This document shows positions 21,456 through 33,600 of a stretch of DNA of 64,000 nt, piece after piece. The position numbers and the translations under genes were made by a program. Position 1 is the first letter of the stretch. Each line of letters starts with the position of its first letter. A model generated the notes under the pieces. The model worked only from the letters and a program-made list of their open reading frames with translations, ran no database searches and had not been told where the DNA came from. The DNA is from a virus, in IMG/VR virus record IMGVR_UViG_3300030419_007196, positions 32,001 to 96,000 of that record; one strand, written 5' to 3'.

Positions 21456-21872
21456 TTAACCAACCCCAAGAGAACCAGACCAGTTGTTTTCCAAGCTGCC
21501 AGTAGCAATACCGGTAAGGCCGGCCGCGACAGAAGCAGAGGTCTCGGCGGATTCGCCCATTAGATAAATTCTTGCAACTCTCCACTCTCCTGTGTAGGAT
21601 TCGCCGTTATCCAAGGAGAAGTAGTTAGCGTTACCACCGGGCTTGGATCCGGTAATACCAAGCGATGAAAACCCAAACCTCAAGACAGAATTGGTGCCAG
21701 TATTTGTGTTAACAACAGTAAAAAACCTAGTAACAGTTGGAAAATCAAATTGAAGTGGGCCGCTGGCGCTGTGAGGCACCCTAAAAGAAGCAGTCACAAA
21801 AGGTATGCCGCTCATTTGGTATTGGCCAACCGAGCTTAACCCCGCCCTATAATTAAAAAAAGTATCACTCAT
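21456..21872 (-). CDS. Hypothetical virion protein
   Basis: 138-aa beta-rich protein; translationally coupled (ATGA overlap) to bS21. Confidence 0.7.
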   Translation of the reverse strand: MSDTFFNYRAGLSSVGQYQMSGIPFVTASFRVPHSASGPLQFDFPTVTRFFTVVNTNTGTNSVLRFGFSSLGITGSKPGGNANYFSLDNGESYTGEWRVARIYLMGESAETSASVAAGLTGIATGSLENNWSGSLGVG

Positions 21873-22081
21873 CGTTTATTCTGCTCCCGTTTTAATTTTT
21901 CTAAAACTTTTTCTCTTTTCATTTTCTCTTTTCTCTTCTTCACAGATGGTTTTATGTAATATCTTCTGTTCAGAACTTCTTTCACTATTCCTGCGTTTTT
22001 CACTTTTCTGTTAAATCTCTTTATAAGCGATTCGGCTGATTCGTTTCTGCGAGCTTTAACCTGTACATTACAACTATACAT
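21869..22081 (-). CDS. rpsU: Phage-encoded 30S ribosomal protein bS21
   Basis: VKARRNESAESLIKRFNRKVKNAGIVKEVLNRRYYIKPSVKKR matches the bS21 signature. Confidence 0.92.
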   Translation of the reverse strand: MYSCNVQVKARRNESAESLIKRFNRKVKNAGIVKEVLNRRYYIKPSVKKRKEKMKREKVLEKLKREQNKR

Positions 22082-29208: not shown

Positions 29209-29547
29209 TTATTCCCTCTTTCGGCCCTCATAATAAATTATATAGCACTTTTCGCAGGCGCCATATTTATGATAAAAGACTTTATCGTTTAAAGATGTAA
29301 TTTTTACATCACACTTTTGACAAGTCTTAACCTTTCTCCTATTAATTAGTTTTTCGTCCAATAAAAACCCTGCCTCTTGTTCGATCTTATTTGACGTTAC
29401 CTGTTGAGCGGCGCTCTTTAGTTGTTCTAAATATTTTTTTTCTTTCTCTGGAGTCCAATATTTAGCCGGGTTTTCAATTGCTTCTTCGCCATATTTTTCT
29501 GATATGGCTTTCTCTAAGCCTGCGATATAATTTTGGTCTTTTTTCAT
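29209..29547 (-). CDS. Hypothetical protein with two CxxC pairs
   Basis: CQKC and CEKC. Confidence 0.7.
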   Translation of the reverse strand: MKKDQNYIAGLEKAISEKYGEEAIENPAKYWTPEKEKKYLEQLKSAAQQVTSNKIEQEAGFLLDEKLINRRKVKTCQKCDVKITSLNDKVFYHKYGACEKCYIIYYEGRKRE

Positions 29548-29981
29548 TTACTCGCCTGTGCGGCGGCATAAAAGATTCCGATGGACATTCCAACACCGGC
29601 TATAAAGCCACCAACAAACCATAACTTAGTATAGTCTGGTTTTTGTGAATTTTTAAGGGCGGTGTGTAATCTTTTAACCTCGCCATCTTTTATTCTCATA
29701 AGCTCATTAAACTTTTTCTTGTTTGTGTCGCGATCGATGACAATAAGTCTTTTTTCAAAATTACATTCGGCTTTAATCTTTTTAACTGAATAGTCCATAT
29801 TCAACTCGCAGATTTTAACAGCACTTTCTCTTTTTGCTGCAATAGTCGCCTCTGCCTTCTTGTCTAACAGGATGCCATCAAAGGGTGCCTTTTGACCCTT
29901 TTTTATTGCCGCTATTTTACCATTAGCAAAACAAAAAACTGGCATAAAAGTTATTAGTAAGATAATTGCTGTGGTTTTCAT
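29544..29981 (-). CDS. Exported protein with signal peptide and C-terminal TM (spanin-like?)
   Basis: MKTTAIILLITFMPVFCFA signal, coiled coil, C-terminal WFVGGFIAGVGMSIGIFYAA. Confidence 0.45.
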   Translation of the reverse strand: MKTTAIILLITFMPVFCFANGKIAAIKKGQKAPFDGILLDKKAEATIAAKRESAVKICELNMDYSVKKIKAECNFEKRLIVIDRDTNKKKFNELMRIKDGEVKRLHTALKNSQKPDYTKLWFVGGFIAGVGMSIGIFYAAAQASK

Positions 29982-30385
29982 TCTTCAACCTCAACGATCT
30001 CCAAACCAAACTCATCAGCTAAAACGTGCAAGCGCAAGTCTTCAGGCATCTCGATAATTTCTTTGATGCGCTTCTTTTCTTCCCGTTTAATTTTTTTGCC
30101 TTGCGCTTTACGCTCTTCCTCTACCGCAGTAACAACTACACTAAAGTCCTCTTGAGCTTTTTTGATCTTCTTAACTTCTTCTTCATGGGCGTTATTTACA
30201 ATTTTAAGCTCTTCTTTGCCTTGCTTTATCTTATCGTGAAACATCTCTTGATAAAGATATTTTGCTCTCTTCTTAGCAAATCTAGTAAGAATAAAGCCCA
30301 CGACTAAAATCACACCAGCCCACCAGTGTGTTTTAGTCCAAATCCAAATTTTGTTTAAAATATGTTTAGCTGTTAGCCAAGTCAT
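29978..30385 (-). CDS. N-terminal TM plus coiled-coil protein (i-spanin-like?)
   Basis: WWAGVILVVGFIL TM followed by a charged coiled coil. Confidence 0.45.
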   Translation of the reverse strand: MTWLTAKHILNKIWIWTKTHWWAGVILVVGFILTRFAKKRAKYLYQEMFHDKIKQGKEELKIVNNAHEEEVKKIKKAQEDFSVVVTAVEEERKAQGKKIKREEKKRIKEIIEMPEDLRLHVLADEFGLEIVEVEE

Positions 30386-30579
30386 TATTTTCCTTTGAAG
30401 CGAGCTACCACGTCAACGAAACCTTGCGTTCCGACGTATGCTGTAGCGATGATGATCCATTGTTCTGAATCAACTTTCTCCGCTAAGAGAAGCCCTGTTG
30501 TTGTTAGCCATACCAAAAGTTTCTTTGATACAAATCTTTCTAAGTGCCTATCGGCAAATGCTTTTACTGCTGCCACCAT
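30385..30579 (-). CDS. Putative holin
   Basis: 64 aa, SKKLLVW start, two short hydrophobic segments. Confidence 0.5.
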   Translation of the reverse strand: MVAAVKAFADRHLERFVSKKLLVWLTTTGLLLAEKVDSEQWIIIATAYVGTQGFVDVVARFKGK

Positions 30580-30600
30580 TTTACCCTCTCTGGTTAGTTA

Positions 30601-30663
30601 TTAACCGCAGCAGCAATCGCAGCCGCAGTCCTTTTCACATTTACAATTATCACATCCACACAT
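30601..30663 (-). CDS. Uncalled 20-aa Cys-rich metallothionein-like peptide MCGCDNCKCEKDCGCDCCCG
   Basis: SD AAGGA 7 nt before ATG; 9 Cys of 20 residues in CxC/CCC arrangement; fills the gap between Mre11-Rad50 and the holin-like gene. Confidence 0.75.
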   Translation of the reverse strand: MCGCDNCKCEKDCGCDCCCG

Positions 30664-30673
30664 TTTTTATTCC

Positions 30674-33600
30674 TTATTGATTAACAAATGCATATCCGTC
30701 ATCTGTTTTAGAGATTTCAATAGTCATATCGACAATATCTTTTAAACTCTCTATGTGAGTAATTAGTAAAGTAACATCAAAATATCCCTTTACAAGATCC
30801 AAGATTCGAACAAAACCTTCCATATTTTCAGCGTCTAAAGCAGTCCCCGGCTCATCAAGAATAAACAGGTTGCTCTTGGGCATATTACTTACATTCAACA
30901 GCGCAATTCTAATAGCTATAGCAGCTAAAGTTTTCTCTGCCCCAGATCCATTTTCCAAAGGTCGGGGGTCATGTTTAGGATGCTTAATCTGAATGTCAAG
31001 CTTATTATCGTTGTTTTCAAAAAATACTTGAAAGTCCACCACATTAGAAAGAACTTTTGCGATTTCATCGTTAATCAGCGGCAGCGCCCTTTTAATGACA
31101 TCGAAAGCAATTCCGTTGCTATGCATACACGTCAGAAATAAATGATGTGCTGAATACTCAGCGCTCAACCTATCTCGCTCCTTCCTCAAGTGCTCTAAAT
31201 TTTCTAGTTTTTGTTCTAGAGCGCCATGTGTTCCAATCAAAGAATACAAACACTCGTTGCATTCACCAATTTTCTTTTGCCTCTCTTCAACTTCAGCTTT
31301 TTTAGACTCTAATTCTGAATAAAGCTTTTCTGTATTCTCTAAAAGCTCTTTGTTTTCTTCATAGTAACGAATCTTTTCCGTCAACTCTTGTATTAGTGAA
31401 GTACTCTTTACTAAGCTACCCGACATTCTCTCATGTTGAAATTTTAAACTCATCAAGAGAGATTTTTCATCCCTCCCCTTGCTTGAAAGTTTATTATAGT
31501 TTTCTATTCTAGATCTAATCTTTCTAACATCAAACCCGCCTAATTCACGATTTTTAAAGCCTAGTTGGTCTTCTAAAGTTTTTATTAATTCTGTTTGTTT
31601 GCTGATTTCTTTTTCAGCCTTCAGAGCGCCGTCCATGTATTTGTGTATTGGACAGTGTTCGCTACACGGAACATCGTGTAAGACGCGAGTTTGTTTATTA
31701 TAGTTATCAAGATCCTTTTCAGCATGACCTTTTTGCTGTGTTAGTTTAGCAATCTCTTTCTCAATCTCACCAACTCGGCTAAGTTCACTATCAAGAGTGT
31801 CGATGTCGATCATCGCTAAAAGTTTTTCGCTCTTTTTAAGAAAGTTTTCCTTTTCACCAATTTGTTGTAGAAGGTCCTCTATTTTTTTAATAAGCTTATC
31901 TTCATGGGCCTCTTGTTCAAGTAATTGCTGTCTAATATCATTAATGTCGATTCTTTCATCTGGAAGTTCGGATAAATTTGCCTCCAAGTCAGTTATTTCT
32001 TTCTGAAGTGTGCCTAGCTCTTCTTTCAAATCAGCACATTCATTTTTCTTCTTCGCAACATCAGCGCCGGCTTCAAAAATTTCTTTTTTAACCCTCTTAA
32101 TGTCCTCATCATAATCTATGTCCTTGACCCGCTTTAGAACACCTCTTAATTCTGATACCTCTTCTTTTGCTAATTTAAATTTTCTCTCAAAGAATTCAAG
32201 ATCTAAGAATTTAGCCAAAATTTCTTTGCGCCTAGTTGAACCTTCGTTAATAAAGTTCATAGCGCCCATTTGCGAGGCCATAGAGGTGGTTAGGAAGTCC
32301 TCTAAGCTTCCAAAGACATTCCGTATCGCCTTGTCGGTTCCGCCGCGCTCAGTCTGGTTTAAAGAGCCTTTCTCGTCAGACACCTGATCTACAAAATCGA
32401 AGTCCGCTTGAGTTCTCGCCTCATTCGTAGTCTTACCCTTAAGTTTCTTAACATACTTCTCCGATTTCCTAGAAATCGTGTAAGTCTTATTATTTGCCTC
32501 AATCTCCACCACGCCAGAGCCTTGGTCCTTATTTTGGTTGATAATGTTGTAAGTCTTTCGAATATTTTTAGAAGTATTATTATAGATTGTGTAGAGCAGT
32601 GAATCAATGATGCTAGATTTACCACTAAAGTTTTTTCCAAAGATTCCCACAGTTCCAGCAAGTTTAGTAAAATCGACAGAATTGCCTTCTCCGTAGTTGA
32701 ATAGATTGTCCCAGCCGAACTTCTTAATTTTCCAATGAACGTTCCTAGAAACGTCTTCACTTTCTTCGACAACCTTATTATATCTTGAATTAAGAGCGTA
32801 GACTTCATCCAAAGTTTCCTCAGATGGATTAAAGTCCATCAAGTACTCCTTAATTAGCTCTTGTTGAGTCTTTTCGTCTCTCAGATTTTCAAACAATTCT
32901 GCGTCAATTTTACCTTCAACAGATAGGTCGTTTGCACCATGTCGACTCAAGAAAGTAATTGATTCTGGCTTAAACCTATGCTTCGCGATCTTTACTGCTC
33001 TTCGAAGTTTTTCTAGTGGAATGTTAGAATTTGAAACAAGTCTCAACCTTGCCCCATGCTGACATTCGAATTTGTTGGGAATCCTGCCCGTTTTTGTAAG
33101 GTTGATTGTGACAAATGGCTTTGGGTTATTAAAATTTATCTTCCTTCTTTCGAAATCTGTCTTACTTTTAATGTCCCAAATGTATATCCCCTTGTCGTTG
33201 GTTTCGCCAAAGTTTTGTTGTATTGTTGAGCCTGCATAGGCGATGGTGCCTTCCTTGTTGAGATCTTGTGTCTTGTGGATGTCTCCTAAAAAAGCATAAT
33301 CAAAATCATCAAAAATTGAAATGTCGTGCTCGCCATGTTCCATAACAAAACCGATATCTGTTCTAGAATATTTAACTGCGCCATGATAAAGGCCAATATT
33401 AATCTTTTCTGGCTTTGTTGGCTGAACCCAATTGTCCTCGTCAAAGACAGACAGAACATTAAGACAAAAATCTTTATCTAGATGGGTTTCGCCTGCATTT
33501 TTTAACAAATAAAGACTTGGATGATCCAAGGCTTCTACAATAGGAGTAATAGCATCTTGGCGATAAGAGTTGCGCAGGTTACCATCATGATTACCCAGAA

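Follow-up and report, generated by a model that had tools for sequence, protein, structure and literature searches.

The stretch of DNA analysed here (the window) is 64,000 nucleotides long and covers bases 32001-96000 of a virus record of 124,864 bases. Downstream of a fused Mre11-Rad50 gene it carries a micro-gene of 20 codons whose product is a peptide with nine cysteines. The first-pass annotation had picked out this ORF, and the observation was right; the micro-ORF is almost certainly a real gene. Comparison of the copies in related phages shows that the micro-gene and its cysteine skeleton have, on the sequence evidence, been kept under purifying selection. In the reading that we favour, to which we assign a probability of about one half, the product would be a free-standing metal-thiolate cluster module of the metallothionein type which is co-expressed with a small membrane protein. 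We infer metal binding by the peptide from its composition and from the behaviour of the module as a domain.

The micro-gene and its locus

The micro-ORF is found on the minus strand, which is the coding strand for 56 of the 64 ORFs called in the window. Positions 30663 to 30604 translate to MCGCDNCKCEKDCGCDCCCG and are followed by a TAA stop (30603-30601) and by a second TAA (30600-30598). The AAGGA sequence in front of the micro-ORF shares bases with the TAA that ends the 1050-aa Mre11-Rad50 fusion (Table 1). The ORF, its Shine-Dalgarno (SD) sequence, ATG and double TAA were thus confirmed as first described, with the minus strand, which had been left unstated, now added. The count of nine cysteines, the absence of aromatic residues and histidine and the mixed use of TGT and TGC were likewise verified from the sequence. 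Cysteine forms 45% of the 20 residues and is arranged in the skeleton CxCxxCxCxxxCxCxCCC, which contains four CxC motifs and a CCC at codons 17-19, while the spacer residues are acidic, amide or glycine. The micro-ORF is not a simple repeat because its cysteine codons are four TGT followed by five TGC. The description of the region as locally GC-rich holds for the 60-nt windows across the gap (GC of 0.43-0.47 vs about 0.30-0.40 nearby) and for the second 30 nt of the micro-ORF (63%), but not for its first 30 nt (30%). Consensus scans for promoters and terminators at the micro-ORF found none.

Table 1. Positions and contexts of the micro-gene, of its neighbours and of related or analogous micro-ORFs
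Feature	Location	Strand	Evidence or context
20-codon micro-gene MCGCDNCKCEKDCGCDCCCG with TAA stop	30601..30663	minus	ORF reading and conserved copies
Shine-Dalgarno AAGGA	30671..30675	minus	7 nt 5' of the micro-ORF ATG
Predicted RNA hairpin	30554..30626	minus	Folding and pairing in syntenic sequences
Fused Mre11-Rad50 (SbcCD-like), 1050 aa	30674..33826	minus	Metallophos 4.6e-13, SMC_N 4.8e-9; phrog_77, phrog_100
64-aa small protein, probably membrane-bound	30385..30579	minus	Synteny; AlphaFold2 model
Two small membrane-type genes of a conserved block	29544..30385	minus	Same order in relatives
Micro-ORF MCGCENCKCEKLCGCSCCCGDK	L189, L193, L156		Before 64-aa gene
Micro-ORF MCGCENCNCQELCSCSCCCGTK	L209		Before 64-aa gene
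Micro-ORF MCGCKECGCTENCGCGCCCG	L094, L142		Other neighbours; after unrelated genes
Micro-ORF MLNVDDCGCDQCGCEKQCGCDCCCN	L072, L081		Terminator-like hairpin follows (predicted for L072)
Micro-ORF MCGCDVC[VA]CTQDCNCGCCCWEE	L198, L204		Directly before thioredoxin gene
Micro-ORF MKECECEACVCTQDCNCGCCCWEE	L195, L196		Directly before the same thioredoxin gene as in L198/L204
Related micro-ORF form	L207		Contig end cuts
Hotspot family, 22 aa with CCGDCCPCCTCPTC, M..H.CCGDCCPCCTCPTCE.	L025 (1657-1725), L026, L029		
Hotspot family, 33-39 aa, MKAFLH.LANLFNSAHCCCCCGCCACVSC...	L022 (1843-1944), L023, L030, variant L024 (4112-4231)		

The record, which is rated 44% complete, belongs to a T4-like myovirus, as the head, portal, sheath and terminase proteins that it encodes show. 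No cultured phage has a terminase more than 42% identical to the one found here, and Flavobacterium phage vB_FspM_immuto and Microcystis phage Mel-JY01 come closest by this protein. Thioredoxin, chaperonin, Hsp20, Pol III alpha and a class II ribonucleotide reductase are encoded in the record, and a sugar cluster with a B12-radical SAM enzyme is located about 40 kb from the micro-ORF. We also noticed a Pol III alpha-type polymerase, a family A polymerase fragment, a GroEL-type chaperonin and Hsp20 outside the window (L212:8104-11553, L212:3145-4710, L213:10622-11809), and a 70-aa homolog of ribosomal protein S21 (phrog_21469, E 1.4e-8) amid the head genes at 21872-22081 on the minus strand.

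A total of 36 viral loci were gathered with the last 300 residues of Rad50. A search for Cys-rich micro-ORFs near Mre11-Rad50 in relatives, which had been proposed as a check, returned syntenic copies in the same place in eight of these loci (L004, L008, where the contig end cuts, L009, L010, L011, L012, L014 and L015). The Rad50 proteins of these eight are only 66-86% identical to that of the window, and D5N, K11N and D12N are the only changes observed among the peptides. The gap in L001, L005-L007 and L034 is about 14 nt long and holds no ORF. No decayed copies were seen in the gaps of the 36 loci and the micro-ORF is therefore all-or-none. A GIY-YIG endonuclease-like gene was found after Rad50 in L003, L013 and L036. 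In L036 (176-2751), the Rad50 frame ends early and is followed by a 241-aa GIY-YIG endonuclease-like gene and then by a 48-aa ORF for the Rad50 C-terminus; the Rad50 gene of this locus appears to be split by the inserted endonuclease gene.

An extra gene is located between Rad50 and the micro-ORF in L189, L193 and L227, with the 64-aa gene still directly 3' of the micro-ORF. Because this adjacency survives the separation from Rad50, the micro-ORF belongs with the 64-aa gene and not with Rad50. Mre11-Rad50 is a neighbour of the micro-ORF and not its partner, and the tie between the two that had been drawn earlier falls away, the more so as the micro-ORF elsewhere precedes thioredoxin or other genes. 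In the window, the ATG of the 64-aa gene lies 21 nt past the first micro-ORF stop. L227, one of 17 loci that were fetched via a 63-65% identical 64-aa homolog and without a Cys filter, carries MCGCEQCDCEYNCDCTCCC... with the same nine-Cys skeleton directly 5' of the 64-aa gene homolog, and here the micro-ORF stop is found 1 nt before the next ATG. Many relatives have the 64-aa gene without any micro-ORF.

The AlphaFold2 model of the 64-aa protein (pLDDT 79.5) consists of an amphipathic helix and two hydrophobic helices. The protein has 85 homologs which are labelled only as 'hypothetical protein' or as gene calls, and no Pfam or NCBIfam family was found for it; the single precomputed Pfam match among the homologs (PF00231, P0030) falls on a foreign N-terminal extension. 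Two or three cysteines are present in an N-terminal extension in 3 of 23 aligned homologs (L019, L020 and L031). A fused nine-Cys module was found in none of the 85 near-length homologs, the richest being P0036 with four cysteines in a C-terminal extension. Of the two membrane-type genes in the conserved block, the 135-aa gene encodes an N-terminal hydrophobic helix and a charged helical stretch and the 145-aa gene a signal-like N-terminus and a hydrophobic C-terminus; Pfam, PHROG and NCBIfam gave no family for either. A holin/spanin-like lysis cassette formed by the 64-, 135- and 145-aa genes was considered and set aside, as no endolysin lies beside them and no family match was found; it remains an idea.

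The micro-gene had been described as hidden, and so it proved to be, as it is conserved, has an SD sequence and is missing from the protein collection. Nine forms of the micro-ORF were looked up among 15 billion proteins and none was present. Standard gene callers do not see genes as short as 20 codons. Searches with Pfam (0 families at E<=1), NCBIfam (0 models at E<=10) and PDB chains (0 chains at E<=10) gave no match to the micro-ORF, although such searches serve short and biased sequences of this kind poorly. No match was obtained by blastn with the region or with L198 against 50,697 phage records, nor by tblastn with the 20-aa peptide against the same records, in the latter case probably owing to the low-complexity filter. 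In several public gene calls the 64-aa protein is lengthened by reading through the micro-ORF in the wrong frame. Such false N-terminal extensions were observed in P0001, P0026-P0028, P0032, P0035, P0049, P0050 and P0066-P0068; since they represent the Cys micro-ORF in another frame, they hint at more unseen copies in metagenomes.

The cysteine skeleton in free and fused form

The skeleton CxCxxCxCxxxCxCxCCC was found as a free ORF of 20-30 codons in at least about 25 phage or metagenome contigs, where it occurs in four genomic contexts, namely before the 64-aa membrane-protein gene, before thioredoxin and in two others. The thioredoxin domain was identified by Pfam scan in L198 (5e-28) and L195 (1.4e-27), and the assignment in L196 and L204 follows from the presence of the same ORF as in L195 and L198. 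In all 12 relatives checked (the window excluded), a purine-rich stretch of the GGA/GAGG type can be read in the 16 nt before the ATG.

Our alignments show that the cysteines are fixed while both their codons and the intervening residues vary. The 22 micro-ORF sequences comprise 19 distinct core DNAs in which TGT/TGC polymorphism occurs at eight of the nine Cys codons and a non-Cys state at none, and each of the nine non-Cys core positions was observed with 2-7 residues. All nine Cys columns are invariant in the 12 free-standing copies that were aligned (alignment A2). When the window was compared with eight other types, the Cys codons were found to have 1-5 synonymous and no non-synonymous differences, whereas the other nine codons have 5-13 non-synonymous differences. 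Most of the distant members were found by a pattern demanding nine cysteines and their Cys conservation is therefore partly by construction, but the syntenic copies and L227 were not found in this way. Most matches listed from the pattern scan of metagenome contigs are poly-Cys/Gly low-complexity DNA, with L049, L072, L081, L094, L142 and L156 as the only true relatives among those listed. The same pattern gave 20 matches in 185,579 species genomes, all of low complexity, and no cellular homolog was found by this pattern. Some relatives do have aromatic residues or histidine inside the module or beside it: L195, L198, L204 and L207 have W in a C-terminal tail, L227 has Y and L203 has H.

In L203 and L208 the skeleton is located within a 220-aa protein, where an Asp/His-rich stretch precedes it and CxxC pairs follow. 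When the L203 protein was searched with phmmer against 1.84 billion representatives, 165 matches at E<=0.001 were obtained, mostly via its N-terminal, middle or C-terminal parts, i.e. its other domains. Among the 150 representatives listed of these 165, seven carry the exact nine-Cys skeleton, and in seven more the Cys-rich stretch is of another kind, with 6 or more Cys in 20 residues. In the aligned fused proteins, the Cys stretch is found at the same site, after an acidic or His-rich linker, and in P0103 the nine-Cys skeleton has a single Cys to Ser change. The presence of the skeleton inside larger proteins shows that it is a protein-level module that is independent of a role as an upstream ORF. 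AlphaFold2 predicted a three-helix domain with a pLDDT of 86-89 in a fused relative and gave 39-46 for the Cys module, values so low that they speak neither for nor against a fold of the module. Foldseek returned nothing at E<=0.001 for the fused-protein model; the weak matches to its three-helix domain are nearly all helix-turn-helix DNA-binding domains, the best with an E of 0.16. The best ESM Atlas score for the fused 220-aa protein was 0.76, with no family. The proteins related to L203:1054-1716 (P0094-P0166) form a modular phage family that has no name and no Pfam family. Its layout comprises a basic N-terminal domain, a helix-turn-helix-like three-helix domain, an acidic linker and a swappable Cys-rich module, and it often ends in a C-terminal CxxC...CxxC domain.

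In addition, two unrelated families of Cys-rich micro-ORFs (the hotspot families in Table 1) were observed after the 64-aa gene homolog in 7 of the 36 loci, in which Rad50 is 42-51% identical. Pattern scans for the 22-aa and the 33-39-aa family found 3 and 4 loci respectively. The latter family combines a helical N-terminus with a poly-Cys tail, and both have many synonymous changes and an invariant core, in which every change is synonymous. The hotspot micro-ORFs start 4-6 nt after the stop of the 64-aa homolog in six of the seven loci, and in L029 a 78-aa gene lies in between. A Cys-rich micro-ORF is thus found in this spot in 15 of the 36 loci in all, the only other Cys-rich match in these loci being a 13-aa alternative frame inside Rad50 (L034). 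Many distinct small genes of the hotspot were also noticed to share a near-identical N-terminus, MKITK.QLKQIIKEEL..., with the remainder being different. These genes lie downstream of the 64-aa homolog in L004, L011, L018-L021, L024-L030, L045 and L209.

A predicted hairpin and the alternative readings

A hairpin was predicted in the RNA of the window in which the core of the Cys tract, UUGCUGCUGC (30616-30607), pairs with GCAGCAGUAA (30573-30564), corresponding to codons 3-6 of the 64-aa gene. The micro-ORF stop and the SD and AUG of the 64-aa gene are found in the predicted loop. The hairpin has an MFE of -32.7 kcal/mol with a z of -2.55, and 2 of 200 shuffles were as good. At each of the ten core pairs, 12 or 13 of the 13 syntenic sequences have standard pairing, and the sole change of a Cys codon in the stem (TGC to TGT in L193) leaves a G-U pair, while a double (compensatory) change was seen in only 1 of 20 pairs. 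Pairing was also predicted in L209 and, deeper into the next ORF, in L094. It was looked for in the folds of L189, L142, L072, L198, L204 and L195 and was not predicted, and so the hairpin cannot be the common function of the family.

Among the ten copies of the window type, 5 of 60 nt vary in the micro-ORF and 14 sites vary in the next 90 nt, with 8-14 variable sites in most 30-nt bins of the Rad50 3' end. Across these copies the third position of every one of the nine Cys codons is fixed, although pS reaches about 0.47 in the 64-aa gene when the window is compared with L004. The micro-ORF, the spacer and the first ~65 nt of the 64-aa gene (30430-30663, minus) were observed to be the least variable DNA within 350 nt on either side, and this low variability among 10 related contigs extends to synonymous sites. 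The frozen Cys third positions together with the low variability point to a constraint at the nucleotide level (RNA or DNA) in the window lineage, which fits translational coupling or an attenuator of the polycysteine type and for which a model based on the peptide alone does not account.

Contigs from three RNA libraries of three studies span the micro-ORF into the 64-aa gene, with X19 covering 30496-30670 and X18 covering 30431-30642 and 30569-30667. The X19 contig represents a relative with K11N, D12N and D16E and one synonymous Gly change, and its skeleton is intact. These contigs may stem from DNA carry-over and carry no strand, ends or level, so that they are not proof of transcription; most of the 1.5-kb stretch has no such contig over it, and these gaps are not evidence of absence.

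One alternative would be a functionless chance ORF in an intergenic spacer. The ORF is indeed very short, and it has neither proteomic support nor a database family match. However, this explanation is extremely improbable and is already contradicted by the conservation, in which the Cys codons change only synonymously across lineages, by the SD before every copy checked, by a gap that is all-or-none for the ORF, and by shuffling. The 124,864-base genome was shuffled 40 times with a first-order Markov model, and ORFs of at least 15 aa then reached 31.6% Cys at most, so that the 45% observed here exceeds 40 of 40 shuffles. Some ORF with at least 5 Cys and at least 25% Cys was seen in 7 of the 40 shuffles, and in the six frames of the window the micro-ORF is the only ORF of at least 10 aa with such a content. 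A short Cys-rich peptide might also be a RiPP precursor whose cysteines are cross-linked by a maturase; family C in the relatives, with a 16-residue helical N-terminus and a Cys-rich tail, has the look of a leader plus core, and the genome encodes one B12-binding radical SAM protein. This we regard as very unlikely because family A is without a leader and has cysteine from residue 2, no maturase adjoins the micro-ORF in any of the four contexts, the radical SAM gene is about 40 kb off inside the sugar-biosynthesis cluster, and no NCBIfam RiPP model was matched. An unlikely alternative is that the cysteine cluster would serve as a switch or adaptor and not as a buffer, using metal, Fe-S or disulfides as a structural or sensing device and docking on a partner. 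The adjacent membrane protein, thioredoxin and, in the fused forms, the DNA-binding domain are the candidate partners. The fusion to the confidently modelled three-helix domain, the constant adjacency to the 64-aa gene in the window lineage and to thioredoxin in another, and the cysteines in the extended 64-aa homologs of L019, L020 and L031 are consistent with such a role, but the Foldseek matches to helix-turn-helix proteins are not significant and no fusion to the nine-Cys module was seen among the 85 near-length homologs of the membrane protein.

The nucleotide-level constraint bears on a further alternative, in which the micro-ORF would be a regulatory upstream ORF and its peptide irrelevant. 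Ribosomes that translate the terminal Cys codons, or stall there, would open a hairpin that hinders initiation of the 64-aa gene, giving translational coupling or cysteine-responsive attenuation. A precedent is known from mycobacteria, where polycysteine leaderless short ORFs are described as cysteine-responsive attenuators in the available excerpt of bioRxiv 10.1101/834739. Because the DNA is unusually invariant and the predicted stem joins the Cys tract to the next gene, this is a live rival or an added layer, and the position of the L227 stop, immediately before the next ATG, agrees with it. As the sole function of the micro-ORF it is nevertheless unlikely, as the skeleton also serves as an internal module of larger proteins and the micro-ORF is found before unrelated genes or a terminator-like hairpin without the predicted pairing. 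Furthermore, the exact Cys spacing is maintained despite nucleotide differences, the SD and AUG of the next gene lie outside the stem, compensatory change is nearly absent from the pairs, many relatives do without the micro-ORF in front of the 64-aa gene, and the downstream gene is outside cysteine metabolism.

Proposed metal binding and comparison with known systems

In the metallothionein-type reading, the micro-ORF would be a translated accessory gene of a marine T4-like myovirus and its product a 20-residue module with nine cysteines. Nine thiols on a backbone of this length would fold only around metal ions, and the peptide would form a metallothionein-like metal-thiolate cluster with Zn(II), Cd(II) or Cu(I). 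Its task in the infected cell would be to buffer, store or pass on a thiophilic metal; alternatively, it would couple the metal or thiol-redox state to a partner, which might be the neighbouring membrane protein or, in another lineage, thioredoxin. Translation of the micro-ORF probably also opens the hairpin between the Cys tract and the 5' end of the 64-aa gene, in which case the two genes would be expressed together.

The composition of the peptide bears out the first-pass annotation in that it fits the operational definition of a metallothionein. The peptide is small (well under 10 kDa), it has a high content of cysteine in CxC and CC motifs, and the window copy is free of aromatic residues and histidine. 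The argument from nearby zinc proteins was found to be weak. A CxxC...CxxC motif can be read in the primase and in a 112-aa ORF; the chaperonin is located outside the window, and we know of no link between it and zinc. No metal-homeostasis gene or metal regulator was found nearby or in the 124.9-kb record (88 further proteins). A locus of the SmtA type has a divergent, metal-responsive repressor of the SmtB kind or another metal gene beside it, and the neighbours observed here are Mre11-Rad50 and small membrane proteins.

More tentatively, it is possible that ocean phages carry interchangeable cysteine-cluster cassettes. Among these, the nine-Cys peptide, with its 20 residues, would be the smallest known unit of metallothionein type that stands free. 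Such a unit would either be used free, with a membrane protein or thioredoxin as its neighbour, or be built into proteins of a helix-turn-helix-like kind. Phages would in this way gain control of the zinc, copper, cadmium or thiol economy of the host, and the Cys codons may double as a sensor of the cysteine supply for the next gene. If the peptide binds metal, it would be a phage-encoded protein of the metallothionein type, and marine phages would act on trace-metal or thiol homeostasis in waters that are poor in Zn, Cd and Cu or in which these are toxic. In the excerpts of the full-text literature that were available, no phage- or virus-encoded metallothionein was found in print, and in PMC10694778 the word 'metallothionein' occurs solely in the references. 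The module, being free and fused and swapped for unrelated Cys-rich micro-ORFs, offers a natural series for minimal metal-thiolate clusters, and with the frozen codons and the hairpin it can be tested whether a coding sequence also regulates its neighbour.

Among known metallothioneins, the vertebrate proteins come closest in Cys count, with a beta domain of nine Cys and three metals, and short fungal Cu-thioneins, at about 25 residues, come closest in size. To our knowledge, no metallothionein is as short or as Cys-rich as 20 residues with 45% Cys. Like metallothioneins, the micro-peptide is very small and Cys-rich, with CxC and CC motifs and Gly, Asp, Asn and Lys spacers, and it shares with the known clusters the count of nine cysteines and, in the window copy, the lack of aromatic residues. 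Bacterial SmtA and the Pseudomonas metallothioneins form Zn3/Cd4-Cys9-His clusters, as given in the available excerpt of PMC7387436, and unlike these types the micro-peptide is without a His ligand. It also differs from known metallothioneins in that it is encoded by a phage, matches no family model and has no metal-responsive regulator alongside.

As far as the excerpt of bioRxiv 10.1101/834739 describes them, the mycobacterial polycysteine short ORFs resemble the micro-ORF in being unannotated and short, with consecutive Cys codons directly 5' of another gene, and they may also have in common an RNA duplex, predicted here, between the Cys tract and the region where translation of that gene initiates. 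The mycobacterial ORFs of this source are leaderless whereas the micro-ORF has an SD, and the gene downstream of the micro-ORF encodes a small membrane protein and not an enzyme of cysteine metabolism. Again in comparison with the ORFs of that excerpt, the duplex of the micro-ORF excludes the SD and its peptide skeleton is conserved elsewhere as a protein module.
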